A stretch of 63,987 bases of DNA, filler included, from Asterionella formosa (GCA_002256025.1; 5 parts of 5 records of this genome joined end to end with filler, not necessarily neighbours in it); one strand, 5' to 3'. Shown: positions 10,255 to 50,226, counted from the whole stretch's first letter. Made by a program: numbers and translations. The notes: generated from the sequence alone by a model not told the origin.

Positions 10255-13055
10255 ACCAAGGAAGAATCATTGAAGCTAGATGAGAGCGGAAAAATCCCAA
10301 AGAGCTGGATCTTGTTAGGCAACCAGTCTACTGTTGATGTCTTCTATAATGCAAATCTACTCAGGAATATCAGAAAAGGTGAAAAACATATGGATATTCA
10401 TTTAACGCAGGTGTTACAAGCACTAACTTGGTTGGTGACTTGCCAGGATATGGGACAGTGTGGTACCATCCAAATGGGATTGCCAACATCTTGTCCTTGG
10501 CAAAAATGCAGGAACGTGGGTACCACATTAAATATGATAGCAAGGATGGAAATGAATTCATCATTTGCAAACCAGACAGAAGGATGAGAGTGTTTAAACA
10601 ATCAGATCGTGGTCTATACTTCATGGACAGCAAGATGGCCAGCACTACAGAGGTCACATTGGTTAATACGATAGACGATAACTGTTCTAACTACACCAAC
10701 CATGACTATTCTTGTGCAGTATTAGCTCGTCAATTACTACAAAAGATCATAGGAAGGCCAAGTACTCGTACATTCACTAAAACTGTGGAAAACAATTTAC
10801 TACCAAACTGCCCAGTGATGCAAAGGGACATCATGATGGTAGAGGATATATTTGGTCCTGATGTGGGATCACTAAAAGGGAAAACAACTCAACGCAGTAC
10901 TGATCATGTGGCAATCAATCTCATTGACATCCCAGCCAGCATAATGAATCACTATAAAAAAATCATCTTGGGAGGTGACATCATGTTTGTGAACAAAATA
11001 CCTTTCTTTGTGACCATGTCCTGCCATGTCAAATTTGGGACAGCAGAACAAATGCTGCAAAATCAACAAAGCAAGAAAATACTAAGGGCGATTAAGCAAG
11101 TGAAAAGCGTCTATATGAAGAGGGGATTTAAGATCTCAACATTGTTAATGGATAGGCAATTTGAATCAATCAGAGGTGACCTGGCTGAAATGCAAATCAA
11201 TCTCAATACTGTTCCCACTGATGAACATGTCCCAGAAGTGGGAAGATACATTTGTACCATCAAAGAGCGCGCATGCTGTGTCTATGACACATTGCCGTTT
11301 CGGCGAATTCCAGCAAGGATGATAATTGAAATGGTCTATTACAGTGTGTTCTGGCTTAACAGTTTCCCAGCAGAAGAAGATGGAATAAATCACAAACTAA
11401 TCCCTTGTGCCATTGTGATTGGAACACTCATCGATTACAATAAGCACTGCAAACTTGAGTTTGGTACAAATGTGCAAGTGCATGAAGAGCAAGACAACTC
11501 CTTGGCCACCAGAACCACAGGGGCAATCGCACTACAACCAACAGGAAACTAGCAAGGCGGTTACTATTTTTACAGCCTCACTAATAGTGGTCGAGTTCTA
11601 AATCGGAACCATTGGACCGCATTGCCTATGCCGGCAGAAGTAATTGATCAAGTGCATGTCCTAGCTTGTCGCAATACCGGCAATGGCACCCCTGAGCTGA
11701 TGTTCACTGATTGTAATGGTGCTTCTCTCACCAACCCTGAGGATGATGATAGTGATGACGAGTCCTATTACCCTGATGAGGATGCCACTTCCAGAATTAT
11801 TGAATACAATGATGACTATTACCTAACTTCCGATGCGTAGAACATCCCTGATGCTCCCATCATCGCAGGAGTGTATGATGAGAAGAACAAGAACACCTCA
11901 AAGGATACGAAATCGACGATAATGCCGAAATTGAGGAGGAAAATTTAGAAAACGAAATTGAGAATAACAACAAAATCGAGGACGAAAATGTTGAAGATAA
12001 CATTAATGATGTGGCCAATGAAGAGGAGCAACAAAACATGTCAATAGACAAGGAAATGGATGCAAAATATGGGACCCGAAGCAGTGGAAATGAACTATGA
12101 CCCAGACGACCTCGGGACTATAGTCACATGCATACAACTCTTGAAAATACAGTGATGACACAGCATAAAATTAAAANNNNNNNNNNNNNNNNNNNNNNNN
12201 NNNNNNNNNNNNNNNNNNNNNNNNNNNNNNNNNNNNNNNNNNNNNNNNNNNNNNNNNNNNNNNNNNNNNNNNNNNNNNNNNNNNNNNNNNNNNNNNNNNN
12301 NNNNNNNNNNNNNNNNNNNNNNNNNNNNNNNNNNNNNNNNNNNNNNNNNNNNNNNNNNNNNNNNNNNNNNNNNNNNNNNNNNNNNNNNNNNNNNNNNNNN
12401 NNNNNNNNNNNNNNNNNNNNNNNNNNNNNNNNNNNNNNNNNNNNNNNNNNNNNNNNNNNNNNNNNNNNNNNNNNNNNNNNNNNNNNNNNNNNNNNNNNNN
12501 NNNNNNNNNNNNNNNNNNNNNNNNNNNNNNNNNNNNNNNNNNNNNNNNNNNNNNNNNNNNNNNNNNNNNNNNNNNNNNNNNNNNNNNNNNNNNNNNNNNN
12601 NNNNNNNNNNNNNNNNNNNNNNNNNNNNNNNNNNNNNNNNNNNNNNNNNNNNNNNNNNNNNNNNNNNNNNNNNNNNNNNNNNNNNNNNNNNNNNNNNNNN
12701 NNNNNNNNNNNNNCCCAAACTATACCGCAAACATGTGCAGATGCAAGGGGGTAAGCAGGTCTTATATGTGGAACTAAAGAAAGCATGATTGTATGGAACT
12801 CTCAAGGCAGCACTGTTATTTTGGAAGAAACTTCCAACAAAATTTAAACAATGGGGATTTGAGGTGAATCCATACAATTGGTGTGTAATGAATGAACAAA
12901 ACAATTGATTGGGCCCAATGCACAATATTATGGCATGTGGATGATCTGAAGATATCTCATGTCAAGCCAAATGTGGTTACCAAGGTAATCAAGCAGTTGG
13001 AGGCGGAATTCGGCATTGAGGCACCCCTTACAAAGACACATTGAAAAGTTCATGA
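10255..13055 (+). mobile_element. Degenerate Ty1/Copia LTR retrotransposon pol fragment (protease-integrase-RT), diatom CoDi-like; interrupted by N gap 12177-12713
   Basis: Protease-like WILLGNQSTVDVF; integrase DIMFVNKIPFFVT and EHVPEV..YI.TIKER; RT motifs LYGTLKAALLFW, GFEVNPYNWCV, WHVDDLKISH (~12931); frameshifts and in-frame stops. Confidence 0.88.
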
Positions 13056-13684
13056 AGCCATCAGCCTCCTCCTTGAGGAATACAGCAACCTGGTACAGTA
13101 CCAGGTACTACCGGTACAATTCAGTTTGTGAAATATCTTTCTTAATTAAATTAATAAATTCGCATCCTCCATTCTGAGGATCAGCTCATAAATTGACATC
13201 ATAAATTTGTATTTATATATGGATATGCATACACCATATGTACAGTCTCGGTAGTTTTCGAACTCCAAGAGAGTCTCGATCAGAACATGACATCTCCCTT
13301 TCTGTGTCACCACAAAACTCAGAAGCGCTCTTGCATAGTCCCTGTTTACAGACAGGAAAACGAGCATTTTGACCCATTTTCTCCTGTCATAACATAAAAG
13401 GCCTAATTCAAAAATAAGGAATACTAACTCTACTTTTTGTCTCACCTTCCAACAAAGCTGACATAAAGCATTCGCCTTCATGGCTATCCAATTTTCATTT
13501 TTAGTAGACTAGATGTATGCAGATATTAATGGAAGATAATTGTTTCCTATCCGCTAGTTTCCTTGTCACTATGCGCATTTTATATTCGTGCTCGTTAATA
13601 TCTAAATGGAAATTGGCGTACACGATCCGACAACACAGTGAAATGTCAAAAAAGCATTTTGTCATACTCTCAAAATAAAGTCAT

Positions 13685-14162: not shown

Positions 14163-14262
14163 NNNNNNNNNNNNNNNNNNNNNNNNNNNNNNNNNNNNNN
14201 NNNNNNTTAATTAATTAANNNNNNNNNNNNNNNNNNNNNNNNNNNNNNNNNNNNNNNNNNNN
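14163..14262. other. Artificial scaffold linker (N44-TTAATTAATTAA-N44)
   Basis: Six-frame stop linker flanked by Ns, 100 nt in total, repeated identically elsewhere in the window. Confidence 0.95.
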
Positions 14263-14990
14263 TCGATCAAGATACTGCAGATATCTTAGAAGGGGTGGCT
14301 CTACAGTCGACAACAGGGAACGCAATAATTTTGAGAGATGATACGAATGACGACGGAACCGCAAGCTCATGGTCTGATGGCTACAAGGGTAACAATTCCT
14401 TGCCTCTTCACGCTGCCTCTTTGCCAGACAGATTGAGTGGCTCTGATTCTGCTGGTATCATTTCTCGTTCTGATAACACTTTTGTCGAAGCACAGCATTC
14501 AAATACCTCACACTACCACGAAAGGTCACCTAATGTCGGCCATGATGGTGTTACGTCCTCGTCGGAAGCTGAAGTGAACAGTAGGGTCGTTGACTCTATC
14601 AGCGGTAACAGCATGCGTGATGTTATGAGCGAGGGTCAATCTTGGGCGTTCGATCAAGATACTGCAGATATCTTAGAAGGGATTGCTCTACAGTCGACAA
14701 CAGGGAACGCCATAATGTTGGGAGATGATACGAATGACGACGGAACCGCAAGCTCATGGTCTGATGGCTACAAGGGCAGCAATTCTTTGCCTCTTAACGC
14801 TGCCTCGTCGACTGGCGAATTGTGTGGCTCTGATTCTGCTGGTATCATTTCTCGTTCTGATAACACTTTTGTCGATGCCCAGCATTCTGATAATTTATAC
14901 GACCATGATAGGTCGCGTGCTTTCAGCTATGATGGTGTTACGACCTCGTCGGTAGCTGAAGTTATCAGCGGGGTCGTTGACACTGTCACT
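14263..14990 (+). repeat. Coding tandem repeat, 387-nt period (units start at 14263 and 14650)
   Basis: tcgatcaagatactgcagatatcttagaaggg occurs at 14263 and 14650, followed by near-identical sequence for >200 nt. Confidence 0.9.
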
Positions 14991-17366
14991 GATTGTGGTA
15001 TGCATCATGTTATCAGTACCGACAATGACAAACATGTTGAGGATTTTTCGTTGGCATCTTATCATGATACTGATCTTTCACAAGGGGAGAACACGCAGGC
15101 TAGGCAAGGTATCACCTATGGAATGGTTGTTAGTAAAAAATGGGACGAAACCGAAAGCTCGTGGTTGGATGGTTACTTGGGAAACTGTCCTTTACCTATA
15201 AACTCTTCTGCCGCAGTTTCCATCTCCAGTAATTATGGCGCATCTGATTTATTGCCACCTATGGGAGTCAGTTCCGTTGATACCGAACAACCGGATATCG
15301 CTGCTGACAATGAATGTTCACACGCTGACAGGCCTTTCTCTGTAACGGCCTCCTCTGGATTTGAGGCAAACAGTACCTTTGTTGGCACTGTTAACATTCA
15401 CAGCATGCATAACGACATCAGTACCGAAAATGATGACTCATTTGAGGAGCATTCGTGGGGACTTGATCAAGATACGACAGACATTTCCCAAGCGGAAGAT
15501 GGGCAATCTACCAAAGAAAATGCCTTTGGAATGGTCGATGGTATGAATGAAGACGAAACCGAAAGCTCTTGGTCGGATGGCTACAGGGAAATACCACCCT
15601 TTCATTTTAGCCCAGGAATATCGACGGGTATAGGGAGCAACCCCCATTCTCCTGGTGACCTCATGCCATCGCTAGAAGACAGCTATTTCCTTACACATAC
15701 ACCGAGAATTGTCAATGGCCAGGATTTGATATTTTCCGGCGACTCTCATGCTGCCTCATCCTTGTTGCCAATTGATGATTGCTGTAAGGGTATTGACACT
15801 GTCACTGGTGGTGACACGCCGAACAATGCTAGTATAAGCAATATTAACTCGTTCGAGGAACGTTCTTGGGGATTTGACGAACATTCTGCAGTTGTTACAA
15901 TGGAGAAGGACGGGCAAGCTATACATTGTAACACCATTGCAACTGGCGACAACGAATCCGAGAGGTCTTGGTCGGATAGCTACGGGCGCAGCGATCGTTC
16001 ACGCACTGCGACAATTCAGTCCCACATTTCCTCAGGGGCTAGTCATGAGTACAGACAGGGTATTCATCATGACAAGAAACAGTCAGATATAACTGATGGC
16101 CTGTCTTCTCTACCATCTGTAATTCAAAAGAGCACGTTGGCGTGTGGTGAGGTAATCGCCAAAGGAACCCATACAGCCAGTCATGATTCTGTCAAGTCTC
16201 TTGATAGCTTCATTCAGGAGAGCGAAAATAATGCTAATATAGAGCCGACACTGATTCAAAGTATCAGCAACGAGTCGGCTTCTCGTGTCGACAATATATC
16301 GGTCCGCTCTGACCAGACAGAATCTTCGAACAAGGATTCGTTGCCAGAAAGTGATGGTTCTCGTTACGATCGTTCAGTCCACAGCGTGAGCTATCAAGAT
16401 GGCGATCTTTCTGTTGACTCCGCCGGTAAGACATTTTCGAGGAGTTCTACAGGTACAGGTGATCGATCAAGCCGCAGCGATAGTTATGGATCTGACGAGC
16501 ATTCAGTGGATGTCAACGGGGATCACCGACAGAGGAGGTCACTGGTCACTTCAGATAGATCTTATGTCAGCACGAGCAGCTCTCGATCCGACGACCGCGA
16601 CGGTTCGGTTGACACCAGCAGTGATATGAGTCAGGAAGACACCGACGAGCGCTCTCCTCATAGCGAAAGTGATCAATCTGACGACCGCTCCTTGGATTCT
16701 GGCGGTGCGCCCTTACCAAGGCGACAAGTTGGCCCAGATGATCGCTCCTATACCAGTAGTGGTAGCTATCGATCAAACGGCCATTCTGTGGATTCAAGTG
16801 ACCAGTCATATTCCAGTCGGCAAGAAGTTAGCGATGATTACTGCTCTTACATCCAAAGCTTTCATTCTCGCGATCACACTATGGCTTCCAATGGTTCACC
16901 AAGGAAGGTACAATCCGACTCTGAGAATCTTTCCTACGATAGTGCGAGCAATCCATCGGAAGCTCAGTCAGTAGATTCCAATGGGAATCCAGTGACACGG
17001 AGACGAGCAAGCACAAACGATGATTCATATATTAGTGGAAGCTATGTATCGGATGACCAATCTCCTGAGCCATTGGCACAGACGAGGATCACCACCCAAT
17101 CTGAGCGATCCTACGACAGTTGCAGCTATCAATCTGATACGCTTCCTGTTGTTGACATGCAGGATGAATCCTATCATTCCTATTTTAATAGTGACAGTCG
17201 GTACAGTGCGTCTGTCTCCCATCATTCTGTAGTAGATGAGGAATCTTCCAATCACCTTTTGGAAGGAGAATCTAAATCAACGACGAGGGAAGCTGATGGT
17301 ACAATTCTGAATTGTGTCATTTCACCAACTGTGGCCAATGACACCAGCAACTCAGGATGCAGGTAG
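14263..17366 (+). CDS. Large Ser/Asp-rich repeat protein, 5'-truncated at the gap; paralog of the C-terminal region of 18461-25897
   Basis: Uninterrupted >1000 aa ORF; ~129-aa repeats ending SSWSDGY; C-terminal DEHSVD/DDRSLDSGG.PLPRR repeats shared with the downstream gene. Confidence 0.75.
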
Positions 17367-18460
17367 AAAGGAGTAATTTAGGAATCACATTCTTTTTACT
17401 ACAATATGCTCGGATTACCGGTACCAGCACTCCCTATGTTCCGGTACATGTGGTTGCAACCAAACTTCATGGCTTGGCCGATCATGAAGCGCAAGCTCCG
17501 ATAATTCTCCGGACATATATACAGGTGTAAATGTTTTGAATCTAGTCAGAAATGATATATAATAATGCCCTCTATTTATATAACTCACATTATCGGTGAT
17601 GATGGTCATTTTGCTTGATTGCAGGTGTCGTCATGATTTTTTATAAAATGCGTATCGATTTTAATAACCCGGTATGAATATAATCATAATTAACATCCGA
17701 GAAATTGTCGGTACATTTTTGCATATCGCTGTGTCATCGTGTATCGTATGAATTGAAGAAGAGTATACTGTATGTTGAAAATGACTTCATTTTGAAAATG
17801 ACCATCAGATGAAATAATTTTCCCGATAAATTCCCAGGGTGCCATCAGCTACACCAACATCATCCTAAATCGATATGATGCCGGTGCTGTTTGCATGATT
17901 TCATACCGGATTCTTGCATGTAATGTACCATATATAGGTAGCATTGGACAAAATGTTTGTTTGCAGGCTTGCTTGTGGTAAGTAAATCTTTTATTTATTC
18001 AAGGTACCAGGTACCAGGTACCGGGTACCATGATTTCGCCGACGCTGAACACACCCCCTCTCATGACTGCAGCCATCATTGACAAACCATAATTGTCGGC
18101 ATTTCATCAAGCTTTATAAATTTGGATACATAAAAAATTAGGCGAATATAATACTACCGTGTGCTAGGCTATGTAATATATTTTAAATTTGAGGAATGCA
18201 TCTTACACATGCTATGCTGGGTATATAAGTATACATGATTGAATACAACTCGCCGAAAGGTCATTGTTCTAAATTAATATGGACAGTGCCACTCTGTTTT
18301 TTAAGATGCTGGTGGACATCGTACAATATATCTATATATGATATTTTGTCGTAGGAAGACTGATGATTGTCAGTGGTCCCAACAGTGAACGACCACACCC
18401 TATTCCACTGTTGGAGAAAGACATTGACTCTATATAGAGTAATACAGGAACCTATTATTA

Positions 18461-21400
18461 ATGGCACGAGAGACAATGATGATCGACGAGGGAGAATGGA
18501 CATTCCCTCGAGGCCGCAAGCGCCAGAGACCCTCATTGGACCAGCGCAACCATCAGCAGGCAACACAACGCCGCTTCCTGCGCCATCGTCGGCACAACGG
18601 GGGGAATACGCAGTTCGAAGCAACACCAGCACCATCAACAACAGCAGCAACAGCAACAGCAACAGCAACAACGCAATGGAACATTGACGGTGGAGAAAAC
18701 ACAGCAGTAGATCTGTTTCAAACGCAGGATACCTTTGATGAAGTTGCTTACTGCGATGGACTACTCGAAAGCGCAATAGAACCCACAAAGGTCGGCTACG
18801 GGTCCATGTTTGACATCAAATCCAGCTACAATGAGCTCTACATTCACGGATTTGACGTGGCGTCGACGGCGACCAAGGTGCGCTATCGGGTTTATTCAAA
18901 ACTCGGATCGTATCAATCGGATGTGCACGCACTACGCGACTGGACAATGGTCCACATGGGGTCCGTTCTCGTGGAGGACGGCGTCGCCCAGCTGCGATGG
19001 ACAGATCCTGTGGTGGTGTCGCCACGAGCGCTGCAATCCTTTTACATTTCGTTCAAAAAGTCCTCATTGGAGTACGGCCCCGTAACCATGTCCATGGGAA
19101 ACATCTATGCTGCCAATGAAAACTTGGAACTACGATTGGGAGCAGCTGTTGATTGGGCGGGACTGATTCAAGAAAGGGAAGTACTTTGGAAGGGAAGCAT
19201 TTACTACACAGCAGAAGGAAAGTGCCCAACAATGGCCAAAATCATCGATGCAACTGCTAGGATAGAGAAAACATGGGCCCCTACTGCATCCTCGGTACCA
19301 ACAACTACGACAAGACCATCCCAGAGTCCATCCTCATCAACAGCACCATCAGCATCGGCATTGCCCAGCCTTGGGCCATCCTTAAGTGCATCGCCATCTG
19401 ATTATCCATCAGTTTCATCATCTGATATACCTTCCATTCATCCATCATCGTCAAATGTGACAGTGTCCTCAATTACGACTCAACCAACAACAGCAACAGC
19501 TGTTCCATTCCTTGCTGCTACAAACCTTTCAAGTGCGCCTTCCTTGGGTTCGACATTGCAAATTCCGAAACTCACGAGCGCGTATCAACCGGCGACAGGT
19601 CAGCCCTTGGCGAACCTAGTGAGTAACAACACTTCAACGACAGGTGCCAACCTAAATTCCAGCAGAATTCCAACTCGGGCACCATCAGTTATAGGAAAGG
19701 GAGAACCAATTGGGGTTTATAACAAGAATGTATCACTATCATCTGGAACAACTACAAATATCAGCAGTGCATCAAACCTGTTGCAACCAACAGTCCGGCC
19801 ATCCACCAAAACACCAACTTTGAACATAGGACCAAAGGGACTGTCAGTCAAGGTGCCTACAATGGTCCTCCCGCTATCAAATGCAACTCTCTCTACAGAA
19901 CCAAGCTCGATTGCACAGACACCGATATTTACGATTCCAATAGTAAATGGGATGGCAGCTCCAGTGAGCTCAAGTTCTACACCAGGGTCAGGCGGATCAA
20001 CGACCACGACTATAACAACCCTCAACAACAAATTTGGAAATTCCGCAAGTGAACTTCCTACATTTGAACCCTCGTTAAGTGCGAATCCAACAATCACTTA
20101 TCAGCCATCTTCAAGCATATCAATGACAGTTGGTTCGGAATTGCCCAGCTCAGCAATCGTCCCGGAACCGTCCTCTCCAGTTGTTACACGGAAACCCTCA
20201 CGATCTCAGAATCCATCAAATACTCCTGTAAATATTCAAATTAAGGCTGTCACGTTCGGATCTGACGCCCCGTCCCAAACTCCAACACAGAAACGGCTCA
20301 TTACGATTAAACCATCACAGAATTCATCGGTAAAGCCTAGTTATCCAAATCATTCAAATTATCCTTCAACAGGGCCCAGTGAACAATTATTCCAAACATT
20401 CACAGCGACGCCTTCTGTCTCGGATGCTGCCCCCCCAGCAGTATCCATGATGTGGGTATTGCCTCTGCCAAGAAAACCAACCCGTTCCAAAACTATACCA
20501 ACATTTTCTCCAAAGGCAGCTAGTCTTTTGATTCCACTTCAGAAACAGGAAACGGTCTCCGTGGAGCCCACAACATCAATGGAGTTTTCTAATTCAACAA
20601 AAAAATCTATTCAGGCGAACAACACCATTTTGCAGCCTATCTCAATTGTTCAGCCAACACCAAATGAATTTGCCAAACCCTCCGCAACAACGCGTACTTC
20701 CCCAAAACCTAGCAAATTACCAACCAATATCCCAGCACCAGCAAAACCAATTGGCTCTGCATCAGGTGCACCAAGCAGTGGTTCGCACTCATCCATGCCA
20801 TCAAGTTTTGGCGACAATGTTACCCCCACTCGATTAGTGAAACCCTCTGTCACTCAACCTGGACTTAGCAATACCAATTCACCTTCCCCGTCCTCACGTG
20901 GCACTCCATCTGGCAGTAGAAGATCAGGTCAACCTTCACTGTCACCTTCTAAACGCAATGATTTGACCCTCCCTTTGACAACGTCGTCTGCTCCATCTGC
21001 AACGTCACTATTGGCTTCAACTCCTCAGGTATCCTCAAAACCTTCTGTCGCTGCTGTCTCAAACCAACCTTCTTATTTATCTCCGCTGCCGCTGCCTCTG
21101 CCTGTGATTCAACCCAGATCTCCAACAGCTTTGCTCTTACCAACCAGCAGTTACGCACCTACATCTGTTTTCCATTCTTTGATGCCATCCGCCATTCCGT
21201 CCGCGATTGCAAAGCTTCCTACAGAAATGGTGATATGTGCAATAGCACCAGCGTGTGAACAACCCAGCTCGTCACCAAATAGTACATCACTGGGAGAATC
21301 GTCAGTGACATCAAACTTGTCCATTGCGACTCCTTCGATATGTGATTTTCTACCCAAGGACTGTCCACCAGTCCCGGTTCCCTCGTCTATACCCTCCTCG

Positions 21401-24400
21401 TCACTGGTTCCAACATATACACCCAAGCCGACAATTGGCCTGTCTTCCAGTTTTGCGTCAACCTTGACCTCCTCGATACCGACAAGTGAAGCTGTTCTGT
21501 CGCTAAAGTCCATGATGCCCTCCGTTGAGCTGGTCTGTGCCCTAGTGCCATTGGCGTGTGAATCCACATTCCAGTCTGGCATTTCGTCGCCGTCGCCTAA
21601 TGAATTGACCATCCCTGCATTAGTCCAGTCATCGTCAGAAAAGCCTACTGCGAGACCGTTGCCCTCATACGTGCCCACGACGTCATGGACACCATCGACC
21701 ACTGCAATTCCAACTCTTTTGGATTCTTCTGACGTTCCAATTACGCTTGGAGCATCGTCTACGCCATCATTATCGGGGATGCCAAGTGATTTTTCGTCGT
21801 ACTCTATCCCACCAACAATTACTGTGTCACCATCTACCGCTCCCGATCAGTTTCCCATTATTACCTTGGTCCCATCAAAAGCATGGGAAATTGCCATTGA
21901 ACCGGCAATACCAGGAAATCCCTCCTCGACACTCCTTCCGACTCAAACACAAAGCAATACCGACTCTCCTTTGACACTTGACGAACGTTCTCGTCGCCCC
22001 TCTCCTTACCCTGCAAACTCGGCTGTAGACGGGAACAACATCAAGTCCCCCTCAAATGCACCGAGTCTAGTCGGTACTCCCATTGGCGAGATCCCTTCAA
22101 AGGTTACTTCACCGATCCATGAGTTGACACACGCACCAACGATCGTCTCGCGAAGCTGCCCTGAGTTCAACAGCTCGTTGAGTTGGGTCGATAGCGAGAT
22201 TCCCTTTAGTTATTCGGTCCAAACGACTGACGTTGCGTCAAACTTTATTGACGACTTTGAACCGTTTCTCTTCCAGCAGGTATCAAAGGCCATATTGACG
22301 TGTAATTCGACGCGACGACGAGCACAGCAGCGTTTCCTGGATGTAAATGTCAGACAGAAAGTGGTGAGACTGGCTTATGATCCAACTGCTTCAGAAATAA
22401 GTAAGTCTTTGTGTGTTCTTTCAACCAAGCCACTAGAAAATTTGCTGAACGTTCTATTTTGCTCATTTCATTCAGGTACCTGCGAAGTTACTGATCCCTC
22501 TGCACGAACATGTTGGGATGTCGCAAGTGTCCTTGTTGTAACTACAGATGCCGTATCCCAGAAACCAGCTCGAGAGGCCGTAATGTTCACATTGAGGCAA
22601 TTATTTAACAACACAAACTTTACTTCAAATGGCATTCCAACTGGGATAGTAGTCACTTTCGAGACAGTACCCACTCCGGCTCCTACTTCAAGCAAACCTG
22701 CGACAAGTCAACCATCGGGAGGAGGGAATGTTGTCCCACCGATGCTCCTGATTGGGTTCTATTTAGGAGGCGCAGTGTTTATGGTTGTTTTTGTCATTCT
22801 CATAATTGGTCGCAGGAAACGAAACGATAAACATAAATTTGATCCTACGAATGGTAAAAATTACATGATTTCGGGAAGTCAGCACAATATGCAACCCATG
22901 ACAAGTAAGGTCGCAATAGGCTGTGATTGGGGCAGTGAAACGAGTTCGCTTTTAAGGGACTCAAGCTACAACCGAGACGAAATTGAAGTTGAAGTTTCTC
23001 AGAACATGGCAGCACCCATGTTCCTCCATATGGAAGATCTTGCTACTAACGATGTTTACTCAATGGGATCTGCACAGTTCAAGGAATCCGAACATAATTA
23101 TCGAGTTTCATCAATTGATGACAAGGCCTTGTTGCAGCAGACAATTGACGGCCCATCCGGCCACATTGCGGTCAGGTCATTTGAATCAGTGGAATCGGAC
23201 ATCTCAGATCAATCTCGAGACTTTAACTCGTCCTTTGAAATAGAAAGCGATTGTAACTCACTATCAAGATCCGACGACGACCGTGCCAGTTCGAAAGTGT
23301 GCCGAGTTAATGGCGAAGGAGGTAAATCCGCGATTGGAAGCAAAGCCGGTGATCCTATTGATCAAGACACTGAGGACACAAATTTTGGGATCGAAGCCAC
23401 GGCTGATCATGTGGGTCAAAAACATGTGAATAATAGGCTAGGCAGTGTTGATGACGAAGAACTCGTCACGAACCATCACATTGTCGGCGATTTGGAGCGA
23501 ACTTTCGTGGACGATGAACTGGATGATCAATCGCTGCGTAGACTCTCAGGCATCAATGCACTTAGTAAAGATCAGGAAAAAGGCGGTAGTTGGAGTCACG
23601 ACGAGTTGGAGAGGAGGTTCGTCGATCAACAGAATTCCCGGGAAAGTGTTGGTAGCAATTCGGAAGTAAAATTGTTCGACGACGTTGTCAGCGACCCTGT
23701 CGGTAAGGACGTTCTAGAAAGAAGAGAATTCGAACAATTCACCACCAGCAAGAATGACGATGATGAAATTTTGAGCGTCAGGAGCAATGTTGATGGTGAT
23801 GGATCTTCTGCACAAAACATGGCCTGTGACGCTAATACTTCACTTGAAGTCGAAAGAATATTGCATTGCGACAAAGGTACTACGGGTGAGTTTAACGACA
23901 GCAACCAAAGGGAAGACCATGGTTCGCATTCATGTCATAGCATTCTCTCTGGAATAGCAACCGTTGAAGGTGAAGTTGGACAGCCACCAAGCAAAAGTGC
24001 TGATGAGAAATTGACAAGTAGAATAACCAAAAAACCTTATTTCGTTAATGAGGAGAAGGATGTTGATTCTGACGAAGGGAACTCATTCGAGGACAAAAGG
24101 GGGAGCAGTCACCGTAGATTGGAACAAGGGAACAAAAGGGATCAATTATCATGCTACAACTATACCTCTTCATCGTTGACAGGTATAGAAAGGGAATCTC
24201 ATATAGCTGTTTCTGTTGGGTCGTCAATGGACAGCGTTTCTCGCGTCAATGAAGCTACGCCGATATCTGTCGAGGAAAAGGCCACAGCAGGAGGAAAGGA
24301 CCTAACGCTTCCAACGGTGCCTGGTTACATATCCGCAGAGATTGGTTTTGAAAGTAACGACAAACTTCAATTGGACAACGATGAATCATGCATTAATTCG

Positions 24401-25897
24401 GAAATTGGTAATGCCTATGCTGAAATATCGCGAGATGTTGGAGAAACAAGGAGTAACATTGCAGCAGGCGATGTTGACATGGGCAACTTGTGTTTAGAGG
24501 ATAGGGATAGTGTTGTCGACACTGCCCCAGGGGGCGACACGCCGGACGGTGAAATGAACGACGATGATGATTCATTCGAAGTGCGTTCTTGGGGATTTGA
24601 TGAAGACATTGCCAATGGTGAGGACGCCGCTTTTACAGGAAGAATTCCATTGGAAACAGGCGATGGCGACGATGATGATGAAACCGAGACCACGTGGTCA
24701 GATGGCTATAGGGCAAGCAATCTTTCGCCTATTCCTGAAACATCAGGTTCCAACATATCTTTAAGCGTTCACTACAGACAAGTTGTTCGCGGCGATCAAC
24801 ATTCACCCCCCGTTTATGACGTTTCATCATTTCCTGTTGATGGCTTTATTGAGTTGTCAGCACCAGGGGTAAACCTTGAACAAGCATATGCCTCAAGTTC
24901 TGATTCTGGCAAGTTTTTCGATAGCTGCATTGACGACGAAGTGGATGATGCTAACGTGGAAGGGATGCCAGTTCGAAGTTTAAGCAACCATCATTCTCTC
25001 TGTTCAGCGCGAATTGAAACTGCAAATGAAGATAAGTTGGCGAAAAGCATTGGTTCTCGTCCTACTGATTCAAATTACGATCGACCCTTCAAGAGTGAGA
25101 GCAATCGAGCCGACGATCATTCTGTGGACTCCAACGGTTTATCATTCCCGAATACAAAGACAAACACAGGTGATAGGTCATACCACGGCGGAAGTTATCG
25201 ATCTGACGAGCATTCTGTGGATTCCAACGGTGATCCCCCGCAAAGTAGGTCAGTTGACACAGCGGATCGATCGTACGTCAGCGTAAGGAGCAATCGGTCC
25301 GACGACCATTCGGTTGACTCCAATGGTAATCCATGGTCAAGGAGTCCCGCTGTCATCGATGATCGATCTTTTTACAGTGACAGCGATCGATCCGACGACA
25401 TCTCATTGGATTCCGGCGGGAATCCATTACCAAGGAGACACGTTGACCAAGATGATGTCTCCTATAGCAATACTAGCAGCTATCGATCTGACGATGATTC
25501 TGTTGATTCTAATAACCAATCATTGCAAAGCTTTCAGTCTGCTGACGATTCGAGGGGTTCACCGAGGACGATGCGATCAGACTCTGAGTATCAATCCTCC
25601 TATTGCGGCAGGAGCTATCAATCTGATGCTCGGTATGCAGACACTAGTGGTATCCCATCGCCATCAACGCGACTACCGGTAGTAAGCACAGTTGTTGAGC
25701 CGTTTCAAACGACAAGGAGCTCAGATAAAGATGAGCGATCATATGACAGCTGTAGCTATCGATCTGGTTTGTTCTCATCAGCCTTGAATTCACAGGGAGA
25801 ATCCTATCGATCATCTATTTCCTATATGGATGGCGAAAGCCGGTACAGTGCTTCTATCTCCGAACGTTCTGGTCTTGACAGTGACTGTTTGGTATGA
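18461..25897 (+). CDS. Giant single-pass membrane protein: N-terminal globular domain, Ser/Thr/Pro mucin-like stalk, Cys-containing juxtamembrane domain, TM, long Ser/Asp-rich tail; probable in-frame intron 22401-22475
   Basis: 2478-codon ORF; PSxSPS/PT repeats; TM MLLIGFYLGGAVFMVVFVILIIG followed by RRKR (~22742-22822); GTAAGT...TTCAG 75-nt intron; start codon uncertain (no signal peptide visible). Confidence 0.8.
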   Translation: MARETMMIDEGEWTFPRGRKRQRPSLDQRNHQQATQRRFLRHRRHNGGNTQFEATPAPSTTAATATATATTQWNIDGGENTAVDLFQTQDTFDEVAYCDGLLESAIEPTKVGYGSMFDIKSSYNELYIHGFDVASTATKVRYRVYSKLGSYQSDVHALRDWTMVHMGSVLVEDGVAQLRWTDPVVVSPRALQSFYISFKKSSLEYGPVTMSMGNIYAANENLELRLGAAVDWAGLIQEREVLWKGSIYYTAEGKCPTMAKIIDATARIEKTWAPTASSVPTTTTRPSQSPSSSTAPSASALPSLGPSLSASPSDYPSVSSSDIPSIHPSSSNVTVSSITTQPTTATAVPFLAATNLSSAPSLGSTLQIPKLTSAYQPATGQPLANLVSNNTSTTGANLNSSRIPTRAPSVIGKGEPIGVYNKNVSLSSGTTTNISSASNLLQPTVRPSTKTPTLNIGPKGLSVKVPTMVLPLSNATLSTEPSSIAQTPIFTIPIVNGMAAPVSSSSTPGSGGSTTTTITTLNNKFGNSASELPTFEPSLSANPTITYQPSSSISMTVGSELPSSAIVPEPSSPVVTRKPSRSQNPSNTPVNIQIKAVTFGSDAPSQTPTQKRLITIKPSQNSSVKPSYPNHSNYPSTGPSEQLFQTFTATPSVSDAAPPAVSMMWVLPLPRKPTRSKTIPTFSPKAASLLIPLQKQETVSVEPTTSMEFSNSTKKSIQANNTILQPISIVQPTPNEFAKPSATTRTSPKPSKLPTNIPAPAKPIGSASGAPSSGSHSSMPSSFGDNVTPTRLVKPSVTQPGLSNTNSPSPSSRGTPSGSRRSGQPSLSPSKRNDLTLPLTTSSAPSATSLLASTPQVSSKPSVAAVSNQPSYLSPLPLPLPVIQPRSPTALLLPTSSYAPTSVFHSLMPSAIPSAIAKLPTEMVICAIAPACEQPSSSPNSTSLGESSVTSNLSIATPSICDFLPKDCPPVPVPSSIPSSSLVPTYTPKPTIGLSSSFASTLTSSIPTSEAVLSLKSMMPSVELVCALVPLACESTFQSGISSPSPNELTIPALVQSSSEKPTARPLPSYVPTTSWTPSTTAIPTLLDSSDVPITLGASSTPSLSGMPSDFSSYSIPPTITVSPSTAPDQFPIITLVPSKAWEIAIEPAIPGNPSSTLLPTQTQSNTDSPLTLDERSRRPSPYPANSAVDGNNIKSPSNAPSLVGTPIGEIPSKVTSPIHELTHAPTIVSRSCPEFNSSLSWVDSEIPFSYSVQTTDVASNFIDDFEPFLFQQVSKAILTCNSTRRRAQQRFLDVNVRQKVVRLAYDPTASEISKSLCVLSTKPLENLLNVLFCSFHSGTCEVTDPSARTCWDVASVLVVTTDAVSQKPAREAVMFTLRQLFNNTNFTSNGIPTGIVVTFETVPTPAPTSSKPATSQPSGGGNVVPPMLLIGFYLGGAVFMVVFVILIIGRRKRNDKHKFDPTNGKNYMISGSQHNMQPMTSKVAIGCDWGSETSSLLRDSSYNRDEIEVEVSQNMAAPMFLHMEDLATNDVYSMGSAQFKESEHNYRVSSIDDKALLQQTIDGPSGHIAVRSFESVESDISDQSRDFNSSFEIESDCNSLSRSDDDRASSKVCRVNGEGGKSAIGSKAGDPIDQDTEDTNFGIEATADHVGQKHVNNRLGSVDDEELVTNHHIVGDLERTFVDDELDDQSLRRLSGINALSKDQEKGGSWSHDELERRFVDQQNSRESVGSNSEVKLFDDVVSDPVGKDVLERREFEQFTTSKNDDDEILSVRSNVDGDGSSAQNMACDANTSLEVERILHCDKGTTGEFNDSNQREDHGSHSCHSILSGIATVEGEVGQPPSKSADEKLTSRITKKPYFVNEEKDVDSDEGNSFEDKRGSSHRRLEQGNKRDQLSCYNYTSSSLTGIERESHIAVSVGSSMDSVSRVNEATPISVEEKATAGGKDLTLPTVPGYISAEIGFESNDKLQLDNDESCINSEIGNAYAEISRDVGETRSNIAAGDVDMGNLCLEDRDSVVDTAPGGDTPDGEMNDDDDSFEVRSWGFDEDIANGEDAAFTGRIPLETGDGDDDDETETTWSDGYRASNLSPIPETSGSNISLSVHYRQVVRGDQHSPPVYDVSSFPVDGFIELSAPGVNLEQAYASSSDSGKFFDSCIDDEVDDANVEGMPVRSLSNHHSLCSARIETANEDKLAKSIGSRPTDSNYDRPFKSESNRADDHSVDSNGLSFPNTKTNTGDRSYHGGSYRSDEHSVDSNGDPPQSRSVDTADRSYVSVRSNRSDDHSVDSNGNPWSRSPAVIDDRSFYSDSDRSDDISLDSGGNPLPRRHVDQDDVSYSNTSSYRSDDDSVDSNNQSLQSFQSADDSRGSPRTMRSDSEYQSSYCGRSYQSDARYADTSGIPSPSTRLPVVSTVVEPFQTTRSSDKDERSYDSCSYRSGLFSSALNSQGESYRSSISYMDGESRYSASISERSGLDSDCLV

Positions 25898-26119
25898 GAA
25901 TTCACAGCAACAGAAAATGTATAATGGTACTTATTTAATTTGGGGGGGGGGGCTTCATCTTCGGGTTGGATAGCGTTTTCATACGTATACTGTTTATTCT
26001 TTTGTTGTTGTACACTTCAAAACCGGTTGCAAGATTAGCGACTAATGCTTGTAGGATGAAAACCGATCAAAATGACTGTAATAATAGGCAGGTACAACGA
26101 CCATCATAGAATTCTTCAT

Positions 26120-28060
26120 TTATGGCATCACAGCTTCATAAAACAACATGTATGCTTCGCAATTTTGTACATGTTTCCATTCAATTGATTGGACAACATC
26201 ATCTGAGATGAACATCCAATTTCCATTGGTTGTACGACGATAGCATTGATAATGTCCAGTATTCGCATTTCCTCGATGTTCAATGACACTTTGAAGTTGA
26301 TATAGCAGGGGTGTCGATTTGCTAGTACTCGATGTAATAGTCGACGCATGGTTGGCCGTCCCAGCAAAGGATGCAGCTTCGGGGTTATCTCCATACGCAC
26401 TCAAGGTTGACATGTCCAAACGTTCTGTAAAATCAACATGTTGCACTGTTTTGGCCATGATATGTTTGTGTGGGTCTAAGAATCTACGTTGAACATGAAT
26501 ACAAAGGATCGTTGGTAATCTTGTCAAGAGCATGCACTTGAGTGCATCGCCATGGACCAAAGACAATTTCTCCTCGTGTTGGAAAGAGTCGTCAAGTGCA
26601 TCCATTTCTCGAATCATGGGAATGACGATTCCATCGGGATCATCAGGGTCCATACCCTTCAAATACTCTAAAAATTGTGTTGCCCTGCCAAGTTCGTCGC
26701 GTGACAGTTGCATCAGTTCCTCATTGTTTTGATATTTTCTTGATTCCAATGTCTTGACAACCCCTTCTAGCATCGTCACTTCTCCATCCCAATAGGTGAG
26801 TTCACGGTTCCGTGTACATGTTTGGCATTGTACATTTGTGACTCGTTCTACGGCAGTGTAGTTTTTTAAGCATTGTAGCAATGAACATGATGGTAATTGA
26901 GTAGCAGGAATGTCCATCTTGATAGGAACACCAGGAAATGCACGCGCATGCTCCAAGTCATTTAAATAATTGGAAACGGATGTTGGGACAACGGGAATAT
27001 CAATAAATGGTTCATTCTGAATTGGACGTACATGATGACATTGACAACACTGAAGTGGTGAACCCTGCCATCCATGCAATGGTGATGGATTCATGCGAGA
27101 GTATAATAATGTAGGATAATGATGTGGTGTTGGCGGTACTGATAGTTCCTGATTATTTGTAGTCACTTTTAGTTTCGTCGTTTCCGTGTCGACATCGTAT
27201 TCGTCGTCATTTATTTGTAACCATAGCATATTTGCCAATGAATTTCGCCCATGACTTGTTTCCCATTCTTGAATGATGGTACTAACAATGGACTGCAGAA
27301 ATTCTTCAGCATCTTGTTGCTCATGTTGATTCCTAAATTGTGCATGTTTCTTCGCAACAAGGGTAAGTATCCCTTGAGGATTTGGTATCAAGTTATTTGG
27401 ATAATGTCCATTGATGGTGTCCAACAGCGTCAAGAGCGATTCCGAGAGTAATTCTGAGGAGTGATGATGATGATACTGATGAAGATTGATAGTGTTATAA
27501 TTCATGTCAACAATCTCTTCTAGATACGTAACAAATGAGTCCAAACTTGCCAAGGCTTGCAATGTGGCATTAAGAAAGCATGTATTTCCAACATTCGGTA
27601 ATCCCCTAACTTCTTGTTGTTGTTGTAGAATTGGAGGTCGTTGATATTTGGTTCTTTCTTGCCATATTTTTTGATTGTTTTCGAGAGAAGACGTATTTTC
27701 TTCGTCATTCATAGTGCTACTACTAGTAAAGTGGTTCTGATTGGTGTTGTTCGTTGCGTCATGATTCAGTTTCAGTAAGATTAGTGCGGATGATGGACTT
27801 GGTAGTCGCTGTAGGACGTAGTCTAAAATAATTGGAAGAACCTTTCGAACATCGATGAGATGTGATATCTCATGGAGGAATCGTGTCAAGGCATCCCGAG
27901 CTGTCGATGCTCCCATTGGAACGGACAAGAGAAACGTTTTGAAATGTTCAAGTAGTCGAGTCATGACAGATGCTGTTGCTGTTGCTGCTTCTTTCGTAGA
28001 GTCGAAGTCAGTAGATATAACTAATGGAAGCTCCATATTGTAGTAGCTATTAGGTATCAT
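26120..28060 (-). CDS. Ubiquitin-specific protease (peptidase C19, USP30-like)
   Basis: Cys box GLPNVGNTCFLNATLQAL, QQDAEEFL, CCQC/CQTC zinc ligands, LPTILCIHVQR, His box EHRGNANTGHY, ISDD, AYMLFYE. Confidence 0.93.
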   Translation of the reverse strand: MIPNSYYNMELPLVISTDFDSTKEAATATASVMTRLLEHFKTFLLSVPMGASTARDALTRFLHEISHLIDVRKVLPIILDYVLQRLPSPSSALILLKLNHDATNNTNQNHFTSSSTMNDEENTSSLENNQKIWQERTKYQRPPILQQQQEVRGLPNVGNTCFLNATLQALASLDSFVTYLEEIVDMNYNTINLHQYHHHHSSELLSESLLTLLDTINGHYPNNLIPNPQGILTLVAKKHAQFRNQHEQQDAEEFLQSIVSTIIQEWETSHGRNSLANMLWLQINDDEYDVDTETTKLKVTTNNQELSVPPTPHHYPTLLYSRMNPSPLHGWQGSPLQCCQCHHVRPIQNEPFIDIPVVPTSVSNYLNDLEHARAFPGVPIKMDIPATQLPSCSLLQCLKNYTAVERVTNVQCQTCTRNRELTYWDGEVTMLEGVVKTLESRKYQNNEELMQLSRDELGRATQFLEYLKGMDPDDPDGIVIPMIREMDALDDSFQHEEKLSLVHGDALKCMLLTRLPTILCIHVQRRFLDPHKHIMAKTVQHVDFTERLDMSTLSAYGDNPEAASFAGTANHASTITSSTSKSTPLLYQLQSVIEHRGNANTGHYQCYRRTTNGNWMFISDDVVQSIEWKHVQNCEAYMLFYEAVMP

Positions 28061-28422
28061 CAGGAGAAGCTTTAATGATGGAATAAGAAAGAGTCTCTGA
28101 TCTGATCTGATATTCTGATGGAATACGAACTGTGAACGAGTCTCTGATCTGATATTCTGATGTATTGACTTTCGAATTAATCACTTTCTTGTCATTGCAC
28201 GCAATCCTTTGTCTACATGCCTTTTTCAATGGAGCTGCTCTCAGGCTGTCGTAGATTCAGTGAAAGCTAAGAAGTAATATGCAATATCAAACAGTGATGC
28301 ATACCAATATAATAATAAGGAGCATTGCATGATGGGATTGGCATCGATCATAAGTTTCATGTCACGTTTACTGGTAGTGCGTATGTTCCATTGTTAGAGG
28401 ATTCAAACCTGTATTCTTACAC

Positions 28423-28522
28423 NNNNNNNNNNNNNNNNNNNNNNNNNNNNNNNNNNNNNNNNNNNNTTAATTAATTAANNNNNNNNNNNNNNNNNNNNNN
28501 NNNNNNNNNNNNNNNNNNNNNN
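28423..28522. other. Artificial scaffold linker
   Basis: N-TTAATTAATTAA-N, 100 nt. Confidence 0.95.
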
Positions 28523-35882: not shown

Positions 35883-35982
35883 NNNNNNNNNNNNNNNNNN
35901 NNNNNNNNNNNNNNNNNNNNNNNNNNTTAATTAATTAANNNNNNNNNNNNNNNNNNNNNNNNNNNNNNNNNNNNNNNNNNNN
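35883..35982. other. Artificial scaffold linker
   Basis: N-TTAATTAATTAA-N, 100 nt. Confidence 0.95.
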
Positions 35983-46000: not shown

Positions 46001-46731
46001 NNNNNNNNNNNNNNNNNNNNNNNNNNNNNNNNNNNNNNNNNNNNNNNNNNNNNNNNNNNNNNNNNNNNNNNNNNNNNNNNNNNNNNNNNNNNNNNNNNNN
46101 NNNNNNNNNNNNNNNNNNNNNNNNNNNNNNNNNNNNNNNNNNNNNNNNNNNNNNNNNNNNNNNNNNNNNNNNNNNNNNNNNNNNNNNNNNNNNNNNNNNN
46201 NNNNNNNNNNNNNNNNNNNNNNNNNNNNNNNNNNNNNNNNNNNNNNNNNNNNNNNNNNNNNNNNNNNNNNNNNNNNNNNNNNNNNNNNNNNNNNNNNNNN
46301 NNNNNNNNNNNNNNNNNNNNNNNNNNNNNNNNNNNNNNNNNNNNNNNNNNNNNNNNNNNNNNNNNNNNNNNNNNNNNNNNNNNNNNNNNNNNNNNNNNNN
46401 NNNNNNNNNNNNNNNNNNNNNNNNNNNNNNNGCTGTGGGAAAGTATGTTATCGACACTGCTGACGATTTCACCTACGTCGACCCAGTTGATGGATCTATT
46501 TCTAAGAAGCAAGGCATTCGTTTCTTGATGACTGATGGTTCCCGTGTGGTCTTCCGCCTTTCCGGAACGGCTGGATCAGGAGCCACTGTCCGTATGTATA
46601 TTGAACAGTACGAACCTACCAACATTGATATGGTAACTTCTGAGGCGTTGGATGAACTGGTCAAAATCGCCCTTGACTTGTGTGATATCAAGACTTTCTG
46701 TGGAACGGAGACACCAACTGTTATCACCTAA
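43034..46731 (+). CDS. UGP/PGM: UDP-glucose pyrophosphorylase / phosphoglucomutase fusion; introns 43058-43374 and 43843-43925; N gap 45535-46431 inside the PGM part
   Basis: UGPase KLNGGLGTGMG, WCPPGHGD, SNSDNLGA, FNTNNLW, RFAPVKK; PGM PGTSGLRKK, GGDGRY, TASHNPGG, FRLSGT, PTVIT*; 24-nt first exon MASFEPCK. Confidence 0.94.
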
Positions 46732-50126: not shown

Positions 50127-50226
50127 NNNNNNNNNNNNNNNNNNNNNNNNNNNNNNNNNNNNNNNNNNNNTTAATTAATTAANNNNNNNNNNNNNNNNNN
50201 NNNNNNNNNNNNNNNNNNNNNNNNNN
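50127..50226. other. Artificial scaffold linker
   Basis: N-TTAATTAATTAA-N, 100 nt. Confidence 0.95.

Follow-up and report, generated by a model that had tools for sequence, protein, structure and literature searches.

Diatoms shape silica walls and secrete mucilage, and many of them glide; all of these activities need proteins that link the cell exterior, or the lumen of a compartment, to the cytoskeleton across a membrane. To our knowledge, very few such membrane-crossing linker proteins have been described, and we know of no identified example of the membrane-spanning linker that has been postulated between the mucilage or the silica-forming compartment and the cytoskeleton. Here we report the analysis of a 63,987-nt stretch of DNA from Asterionella formosa (GCA_002256025.1; hereafter the window), on which two neighbouring genes, termed gene 1 and gene 2, encode proteins that end in a homologous tail. 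As an expressed, mucin-like single-pass protein of 2453 amino acids (aa) with a motif-bearing tail, duplicated in tandem, the gene 2 product is a concrete candidate for a linker. Our preferred reading, which is tentative and to which we assign a probability of roughly 0.45, is that the two genes are lineage-restricted tandem paralogs whose tail serves as a cytosolic, phosphorylatable docking array.

Transmembrane mucins of the MUC1 type consist of a Pro/Thr/Ser (PTS)-rich ectodomain, a juxtamembrane alpha/beta domain, one transmembrane (TM) helix with a basic stop-transfer sequence, and a tail with Ser/Tyr docking motifs. Gene 2 resembles them in architecture, which we regard as an analogy and not as homology. 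It shares with them a single TM helix, here followed by 1025 aa whose orientation we infer, and this tail is about 14 times longer than that of MUC1. Unlike the MUC1-type proteins, gene 2 has no signal peptide, and Tandem Repeats Finder (TRF) detected no tandem-repeat structure in its 966-aa PTS region (19247-22144). No SEA domain was found in gene 2 by Pfam (PF01390, none even at E ≤ 10), and only an Atlas similarity of 0.77 pointed to one. Gene 2 can be described as a variation on the mucin-like, single-pass membrane protein, set apart by the motifs in its tail.

Among diatom proteins, the silicalemma-associated proteins SAP1-3 of the silica deposition vesicle of Thalassiosira pseudonana are presented in the cited passages as single-pass proteins with a Ser-rich part on one side of the membrane and a conserved cytoplasmic segment proposed to contact cytosolic or cytoskeletal partners, and the members of the family show a low overall similarity that is confined to specific regions (PMC5647440). 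Gene 2, and the pair that it forms with gene 1, are alike in these respects. On the other hand, the SAPs are said there to possess a signal peptide, RXL sites, short runs of poly-Ser and, immediately behind the TM helix, a conserved domain of 28 aa (PMC5647440), whereas gene 2, compared with them by description only, has no signal peptide and, on its N-terminal side, no such poly-Ser runs, carries its conserved part ~590 aa after the helix, and is several times larger. The Craspedostauros australis proteins CaFAP1, CaTrailin4 and Ca5609 are, as far as the cited sections describe them, very large, PTS-rich, equipped with interspersed Cys parts and largely species- or diatom-specific (bioRxiv 10.1101/2023.03.06.531300; PMC11420354), and gene 2 is similar in this sense. 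In the same sections, the adhesive proteins of this diatom have signal peptides and those with CAA domains have no membrane anchor, again a comparison by description only. By contrast, gene 2 has a TM helix and a 1025-aa acidic tail, no signal peptide, and no CAA domain (PF20597) in Pfam searches with gene 2, its public model P0004 and its N-terminal domain. Silaffin, cingulin and silacidin-type biosilica proteins are characterized by a signal peptide with an RXL propeptide and by mature peptides that are either rich in KXXK or extremely acidic and Ser-rich. Gene 2 has no signal peptide, and its tail is acidic and Ser-rich with an isoelectric point (pI) of only 4.2-4.6 and with Lys scarce as judged by eye.

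A further parallel concerns the tail itself. The cargo motifs bound by kinesin light chain in calsyntenin-1, SKIP and JIP1 are described, in the portion of the source cited, as Trp- or Tyr-acidic, with Trp directly flanked by Asp/Glu as in EWD; calsyntenin has two cytosolic W-acidic motifs, either of which recruits the motor kinesin-1 when placed on an artificial transmembrane protein (PMC6214655). The tails studied here similarly bear short Trp- and Tyr-centred motifs in acidic, putatively disordered regions. They fall outside the W-acidic definition because Trp is flanked by Ser/Thr at position -1 and by Ser/Gly at position +1, as in SSWSDGY and RSWGFDE. The calsyntenin-type design may thus illustrate how such a tail could work, with no membership in that class being implied.

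Two tandem paralogs with a homologous tail

The window is made up of separate contigs joined by identical linkers (44 N + TTAATTAATTAA + 44 N) at 14163-14262, 28423-28522, 35883-35982 and 50127-50226. Gene adjacency across the linkers is therefore not established, and neighbourhood arguments are valid within one contig only. Gene 1 and gene 2 both lie on the + strand of a single contig (14263-28422), where each appears as an open reading frame (ORF): 14295-17366 encodes 1023 aa in a frame that stays open as far as the contig start (14263/14265), and 18461-25897 encodes 2478 aa without splicing. The gap at 14163 mentioned in the original prediction, introduced below, is one of the linkers, so that the sequence to its left does not necessarily adjoin gene 1. 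An earlier model-generated reading of the DNA (the original prediction) had claimed that these adjacent, same-strand ORFs have colinear, homologous C-termini. BLASTP confirmed this with 205/501 identities (41%) and an E-value of 1e-56, and a MAFFT alignment of the tails gave 46% identity with long invariant strings. The length common to both genes is ~460-520 aa, corresponding to 524 aa in gene 1 (15792-17363) and 460 aa in gene 2 (24515-25894). The Smith-Waterman score of the two tails was 717, against 109 ± 14 (maximum 162) for 200 whole shuffles and 123 ± 13 (maximum 163) for 200 shuffles within 30-aa blocks (z ~45). Since no shuffle exceeded 163, Ser/Asp-rich composition alone is not the cause of the match. 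The similarity extends to the DNA, and the matches predicted near ~16490/~25199 and ~17199/~25841 were recovered inside 16364-16809/25075-25523 (70% over 455 nt, E 3e-56) and 17102-17229/25732-25871, respectively. Off-diagonal DNA matches ~186-189 nt away made an internal repeat visible in the tails.

The paralog tails displayed dN and dS values of 0.43 and 1.01, with a ratio of nonsynonymous to synonymous substitution rates (dN/dS) of 0.43 overall and of 0.31-0.57 in six 60-codon windows; dS failed in the seventh (columns 68-130). The residue was kept at 202/443 aligned codons, and 69 of those 202 used a different codon. The tail is under moderate purifying selection.

Expression of both ORFs was borne out by RNA contigs from four runs, namely one polyA library and three lake metatranscriptomes (labels X1, X2 and X5 are used below). 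Both the polyA RNA and the three lake samples cover each gene, and the two genes are represented by separate RNA contigs. The depth of these contigs is unsuited to ranking genes or counting repeat units.

Taking into account that the assembly is fragmented, contains linkers and cuts gene 1 at a repeat, we considered the possibility that the pair consists of mis-assembled haplotypes or of one gene split in two. However, identity between the tails amounts to only 41% in protein and ~70% in DNA, and each gene has its own public allele that is 98-99.6% identical. Moreover, gene 1 has its own stop and 3' untranslated region (UTR) contigs, a contig of gene 2 begins at 18435, and none of the X1 contigs covers 18039-18434. 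An assembly artefact is thus extremely improbable in our judgement. The two ORFs are true tandem paralogs, in agreement with the original prediction, which had argued from their divergence that they are not haplotypes.

The tails and the regions that precede them were then examined for motifs. The tail has a pI of 4.2-4.6, a Ser content of 20-23% and 19-20 Tyr residues, and is thus acidic; it falls below the charge-hydropathy boundary for folded proteins. Over the post-TM regions as a whole, pI is 4.2-4.6, Ser accounts for 14-23% and Asp + Glu for 17-20% of residues, and the mean hydropathy (0.38-0.41) is below the Uversky boundary of 0.44-0.45. From this composition, the tail is probably intrinsically disordered, with no folded domain. 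S/T-x-x-D/E sites occur at 32-59 per 1000 aa in the post-TM regions and gene 1, compared with 17 in the PTS region.

The most conspicuous element is a paired-tryptophan module, the presence of which in both genes had been predicted and was confirmed. It reads GGDTP, ~10 residues, SFE.RSWGFD(E/Q)D, 31-39 residues, and (D/E)ET.(S/T)(S/T)WSDGY. Regular-expression searches and MAFFT located five copies in gene 1, one in gene 2 (SWGFD at 24587, WSDGY at 24695-24709) and one in a foreign protein, P0005, described below. In one of the gene 1 modules, Tyr replaces the first Trp. High-scoring segment pairs in BLASTP linked the gene 1 module array to the single gene 2 module with E-values of 3e-6 and 0.005. 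The seven modules contain 11 Trp motifs: six of the WSDGY type and four of the SW.FD type in the two genes, and one WSDYG in P0005. At all 11, Ser or Thr precedes the Trp, the following residue is Ser, Leu, Gly or Ala, and Asp is present at +2 or +3. In practical terms, the module offers a short peptide bait for pull-downs.

Downstream of the module, both tails contain five units of the form DRSY..SYRSDDHSVDSNG.P, with a longer form DRSY..SYRSD(D/E)HSVDSNG.P...R. The unit is ~31 aa long, and the 24 aa given in the original prediction proved too short in view of the start positions in gene 2, where four strict copies begin at spliced aa 2193, 2223, 2255 and 2318. The alignment places a degenerate SLDSGG.PLPRR variant between the third and fourth strict copies, making it the fourth unit of the five. 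The units span 16398-16814 in gene 1 and 25112-25525 in gene 2, and are followed in both by QSF.S.D..GSPR, ERSYDSCSY and SRYSAS motifs. The order of the five units is the same in both paralogs, and the array must therefore be older than the duplication. Readings of tail motifs as Arp2/3 acidic motif, LC3-interacting region (LIR), FFAT, EF-hand-like DxNxD or beta-TrCP DSG were rejected by eye against the consensus sequences; each fitted some copies only.

We also compared the public gene 2 models P0004 and P0007, which revealed 1/292 differences in the ectodomain part, 0/31 in the TM segment, 17/562 in the proximal post-TM region and 54/462 in the shared tail. No other region varies as much between the two models, and the 75-residue W module of the tail shows no difference at all. 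Frozen islands in fast linkers are the pattern of short-linear-motif arrays. An alternative is that the tail has no specific function and is a fast-evolving, low-complexity appendage, alike in the two genes through a fairly recent duplication, with its motifs being leftovers of repeat expansion. The variability between close variants (54/462), a dN/dS of 0.67 between the tandem units of gene 1, the near absence of relatives elsewhere and the low-complexity composition would all be expected from such an appendage. Against it count a dS of ~1.0 between the paralog tails with dN/dS of 0.43, the invariance of the W module among variants (0/75) and its recurrence in the foreign P0005 together with D.SVDS units, the greater age of the five-unit array relative to the duplication, and the transcription of both genes in culture as well as in lake samples. 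We accordingly hold a functionless tail to be rather doubtful.

We searched for relatives of the tail on a large scale. A two-sequence tail profile run against 1,835,955,588 representative proteins gave three matches at E ≤ 0.001: P0003, which corresponds to gene 1, P0004, which corresponds to gene 2, and P0005 (366 aa, E 4e-5), a weak foreign relative. P0005 contains a W pair and at least three D.SVDS units, and its pairwise E-value was 3e-7. When the tail (aa 1980-2478) was used in a word-indexed search, 8000 candidates with lengths of 1362-4337 aa were scored, and not one reached E ≤ 0.001. Similarly, a word-indexed search with the juxtamembrane and TM part of P0004 (740-2358 aa) yielded 2/908 candidates, both of which were gene 2 itself. 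Pfam searches with the two genes, P0004, P0005, P0006 (a relative of the N-terminal domain, see below) and the N-terminal domain gave nothing near the cut-offs; the best match on gene 1 was Use1 (E 0.54), which at 10.3 bits stayed well under its cut-off of 38.3, and there was none on gene 2. NCBIfam gave no match, and none of the Protein Data Bank (PDB) sequences matched the 1347-aa model P0004. No further copy was found when the whole window was searched by tblastn with both genes, P0005 and P0006. Full-text literature searches returned no description of the family or of the motifs WSDGY, HSVDSNG and SWGFDE. The proposal that the genes belong to an uncharacterised, lineage-specific family is thereby upheld: two of the three profile matches are the genes themselves, and there is no Pfam or PDB match.

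Gene 1 is seen in part only. Its coding sequence, delimited by ORF search and RNA contigs, occupies 14265-17366 on the + strand, with the stop at 17364-17366, at least 1033 codons and a frame open to the contig start. At 14263-14988, TRF detected 1.9 copies of a tandemly repeated 387-bp unit (129 aa; 87% matches), and because the contig begins inside this repeat, gene 1 is 5'-truncated. The two 387-bp units differ at 73/387 nt and display the dN/dS of 0.67 mentioned above; no copy number of the repeat is claimed from RNA depth. According to regular expression and MAFFT, five ~130-aa modules, each with paired Trp (SFE.(R/H)SWGFD.D ... (D/E)ET.S(S/T)WSDGY), fill 14265-15990, with W..Y motifs starting at 14370, 14757, 15162, 15570 and 15969; the last module belongs to the shared tail, together with the five 31-aa units, ERSYDSCSY and SRYSAS. 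The public protein P0003 is an allele of gene 1 (14/894 residues differ) and likewise begins at a unit boundary; evidently, assemblies break at this repeat. Metagenome contigs were scanned twice; of the 66 pattern matches obtained from the N-domain alignment and the 34 obtained from the gene 1 repeat units, none was confirmed, and therefore the missing 5' part was not recovered. RNA contigs are colinear with gene 1 over 14828-17630 with no joint. The 3' UTR extends from 17367 to 17694 on the + strand, the limit of the RNA contigs (X1 contig 17257-17694, X2 to 17664, X5 to 17630).

Some minor observations on gene 1 can be added. Within the 3' UTR, at 17453-17513, the X1, X2 and X5 contigs diverge on both sides of a stretch of ~45-60 nt, with loose contig ends at 17453, 17495 and 17513; the stretch is probably a short repeated element common to other transcripts. 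When the lake contigs were compared with the window, gene 1 showed 62 other letters in 1692 nt (X2) and 71 in 2809 nt (X5), against only 18 in 3727 nt for the PTS ectodomain part of gene 2 (18680-22400). Gene 1 is thus more divergent than the PTS ectodomain, which is the reverse of expectation, as PTS regions usually evolve fast.

Transcript and domain order of gene 2

The gene 2 transcript extends over 18435-25952 on the + strand according to RNA contigs (X1 contigs 18435-18617, 18680-19019 and 18997-25952, the last with a joint). A 75-nt, in-frame GT..AG intron at 22401-22475 was identified from a joint at 22400/22476 that was present in 4/4 RNA runs. The coding sequence is consequently 18461-22400 + 22476-25897, and its spliced translation of 2453 aa contains no stop and agrees with P0004 across the junction. 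Both P0004 and P0007 are free of the 25 intron codons; P0004 differs from gene 2 at 5/1347 residues, and P0007 is 96% identical.

The protein begins with a basic leader of 72 aa (18461-18676, pI 11.8) that includes RGRKRQRP and FLRHRRH and ends in a CAA/CAG-coded Thr/Ala run, where TRF detected a repeat (18621-18676). The leader is followed by a predicted all-beta, globular N-terminal domain (N-domain) of ~190 aa at 18677-19246, delimited by homology to P0006 and by an AlphaFold2 (AF2) model. The model, built from a two-sequence alignment, consists of strands only and is of low confidence, with a predicted local distance difference test score (pLDDT) of 39. P0006 was the one relative among 5940 candidates in a word-indexed search over shorter proteins (57% identity, E 3.9e-62). 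Residues 1-55 of P0006 contain the same basic leader motifs (RG.KR.R, LRHRRH), and the protein has no hydrophobic start. In these otherwise ectodomain-like proteins, the conserved leader motifs may be a nuclear localization signal (NLS), a propeptide or an unknown targeting signal.

In the Atlas, unnamed clusters from haptophytes and diatoms scored 0.94 and 0.93 against the N-domain, and lectin-like, PHR and DUF4082 beta-sandwich families only 0.87. A scan of genome contigs with the N-domain confirmed 1/31 pattern matches, a weak bacterial lead (L001, 2926-3651). L001 derives from a gammaproteobacterial metagenome-assembled genome and encodes 241 aa with a signal-peptide-like start and a PEP-CTERM-like end, the PEP-CTERM match scoring 12.7 bits, short of the cut-off of 20.7. 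The protein resembles the N-domain in two colinear stretches. The first, YGSMFDI..L.I.G.D, has 14/33 identical residues and was found by a pattern built from the query itself. The second, C-terminal stretch gave a Smith-Waterman score of 49 against 27 ± 4.4, reached by 0/500 shuffles; its likeness to P0006 was weaker (z 2.4, reached by 10/500 shuffles). Scoring of 300 genomes of this class yielded no additional bacterial relative. The likeness gives a weak hint that the N-domain may be extracellular.

The PTS-rich, mucin-like region of 966 aa (Ser 20%, Thr 12%, Pro 15%), recognized by its composition, contains 15 N-x-S/T sequons and three close Cys pairs. Next comes a putative juxtamembrane alpha/beta domain of ~150 aa with four Cys at 22145-22675, which also holds the intron. 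Its AF2 model, built from a single sequence, has the order b-a-b-b-b-a-b with a pLDDT of 43, and Foldseek with this model returned nothing at E ≤ 0.001. The best Atlas similarity of the domain was 0.82, to unnamed clusters; the SEA cluster ranked seventh at 0.77 and is a lead only.

A single TM helix (VVPPMLLIGFYLGGAVFMVVFVILIIG) followed by RRKR is located at 22730-22822 (spliced aa 1399-1425). No other part of the protein reaches a 19-aa Kyte-Doolittle mean of 2.0, and the helix peaks at 2.74; the sole other window above 1.6 is one of 1.61 at aa 1011, in the PTS region. The hydrophobic core comprises ~25 residues, and the basic stretch after it reads RRKRNDKHK. The original prediction had placed the tail after a TM helix plus RRKR. 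The helix and the basic motif were borne out; their direct adjacency to the tail was not, as the helix lies ~590 aa upstream of the shared tail. The 1025 acidic aa on the C-terminal side of the helix consist of a proximal region of ~560 aa (22823-24514; pI 4.5, Asp + Glu 20%), delimited by composition, and of the gene 2 copy of the shared tail with its W module, five 31-aa units, ERSYDSCSY and SRYSAS. The proximal region gave no BLASTP segment pair to gene 1. Within it, at 23400-23800 (unspliced aa ~1650-1740), three (D/E)LER(R/T)F(V/E)(D/Q)-like motifs occur ~45 aa apart (DLERTFVDD, ELERRFVDQ and VLERREFEQF), possibly a further linear motif that is not common to gene 1.

Orientation and possible function of the tail

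The positive-inside rule states that the more positively charged flank of a TM helix is on the cytosolic side. In gene 2, one positive residue (Lys) was found before the helix, and six Arg/Lys within 15 residues after it. Under this rule, the bias of 1 against 6 suggests that the C-terminal part is cytosolic. The PTS composition, the sequons and the paired Cys are all on the N-terminal side of the helix, as would fit an ectodomain. PTS-rich regions are a hallmark of glycosylated extracellular diatom proteins in the part of the report cited (bioRxiv 10.1101/2023.03.06.531300).

Several points weigh against a cytosolic docking tail. Gene 2 has no signal peptide; its N-terminus is basic and non-hydrophobic, and no hydrophobic stretch occurs in the first 1000 aa. 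The X1 contig that starts at 18435 follows the genome from the first nucleotide on, with an in-frame TAA (18440) upstream of the ATG (18461), and a three-frame translation of the 1.1-kb intergenic region, inspected by eye, revealed no plausible signal-peptide exon. The only N-terminal homologue, P0006, has the same basic, non-hydrophobic leader. Some 1400 N-terminal aa would hence need to be translocated with no recognized signal, a consideration that favours the opposite orientation. The absence of a signal peptide on an ectodomain-like half is a small puzzle of membrane protein biogenesis. In addition, the folds of the ectodomain are not established, both AF2 models being of low confidence, the disorder of the tail is judged from composition only, and its phosphorylation, partners and localisation are conjectures from its primary structure. 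In gene 1, no TM helix was detected by Kyte-Doolittle analysis of the visible part; its 5' part is absent, which makes any membrane anchoring of gene 1 conjectural. The family, comprising this organism, P0005 and P0006, is too small for an analysis of cross-species conservation. Nearly restricted to one organism, it has yet to be assigned a function, and diatom genomes commonly contain lineage-specific disordered proteins; we therefore regard it as a lead and not as a discovery.

In the main rival reading, the orientation is reversed. The N-terminal leader, the beta domain and the PTS region would then be in the cytosol, with the TM helix serving as a signal anchor that sends the 1025-aa acidic part into the secretory pathway. 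There, a kexin/furin-type protease would cut at RRKR and thereby set free an acidic, probably phosphorylated polypeptide for the wall, the silica compartment or the mucilage, in the manner of silacidin or phosphophoryn. This would account for the lack of a signal peptide in gene 2 and P0006, both of which have the conserved basic, NLS-like leader, and for the order of synthesis, in which ~1400 aa with a folded beta domain precede the emergence of the TM helix. R-R-K-R also fits the dibasic processing consensus, and the acidic, Ser-rich nature of the tail (pI 4.2-4.6) would be in keeping. For diatom silica proteins, the passages cited document lumenal segments that are rich in Ser and phosphorylated, as well as processing by proteolysis (PMC5647440). 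However, the KXXK motifs that the same passages tie to silica polymerisation in silaffins and cingulins (PMC5647440) are absent from the tail, in which Lys was judged by eye. Furthermore, the strong charge bias together with a core of ~25 residues favours a C-terminus-in arrangement, and the PTS composition, sequons and paired Cys are found on the side that would be cytosolic. We consider release of a secreted acidic polypeptide unlikely, though worth keeping in view. Judging from the sequence, the C-terminus-in arrangement is somewhat favoured over its reverse. The cytosolic tail of the original prediction is thus backed by the charge bias and called into question by the lack of a signal peptide on gene 2 and P0006.

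If the tail is indeed cytosolic, as in our preferred reading, we envisage the following mechanism. Gene 2 would be a 2453-aa single-pass membrane protein with an N-terminal half like that of a surface glycoprotein, composed of the beta domain, the stalk and the juxtamembrane domain, and gene 1 would represent a fragment of a second member in which one tail element has been amplified into a tandem array. The shared tail, which can be viewed as a string of short conserved motifs in a fast-evolving acidic linker, would face the cytosol as a membrane-tethered, multivalent docking platform. The Trp pair and the Tyr/Ser units would bind folded domains of partner proteins, and phosphorylation of Ser and Tyr may tune this binding, considering the dense Ser beside Asp/Glu. 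In this way the membrane protein would be connected with cytosolic proteins that act in trafficking, signalling or the cytoskeleton. The larger number of W modules in gene 1 may confer higher avidity or, should gene 1 have no TM helix, produce a soluble competitor. For a cytosolic tail, such a phospho-scaffold is plausible. A bolder version would see in gene 2 and its paralog the diatom counterpart of transmembrane mucins, in which a glycosylated stalk is tied to a cytosolic Trp/Tyr array that recruits motors or cytoskeletal adaptors, with surface delivery without a classical signal peptide; we regard this as a long shot.

Other features of the window

The contig of gene 1 and gene 2 (14263-28422) also carries a ubiquitin hydrolase gene on the opposite strand. 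Between gene 1 and gene 2, TRF detected an intergenic (AGGTACC)n microsatellite of 4.1 copies at 18002-18030, and GGTACC-rich words are also present at 17415-17450. The remaining ORFs of the window encode ordinary eukaryotic proteins, for example Vac14, a GCN2-like kinase and a RING protein. At 12714-13080, adjoining a gap of 537 N, a reverse-transcriptase-like stretch with stops was noticed by eye, which we take to be probably a decayed retroelement of the Ty1/copia type. Finally, a single ORF at 43866-46463 contains both a UTP-glucose-1-phosphate uridylyltransferase (UGPase) domain and phosphoglucomutase (PGM) domain I, and thus represents a fused UGPase-PGM gene, interrupted by a gap of 897 N at 45535-46431.

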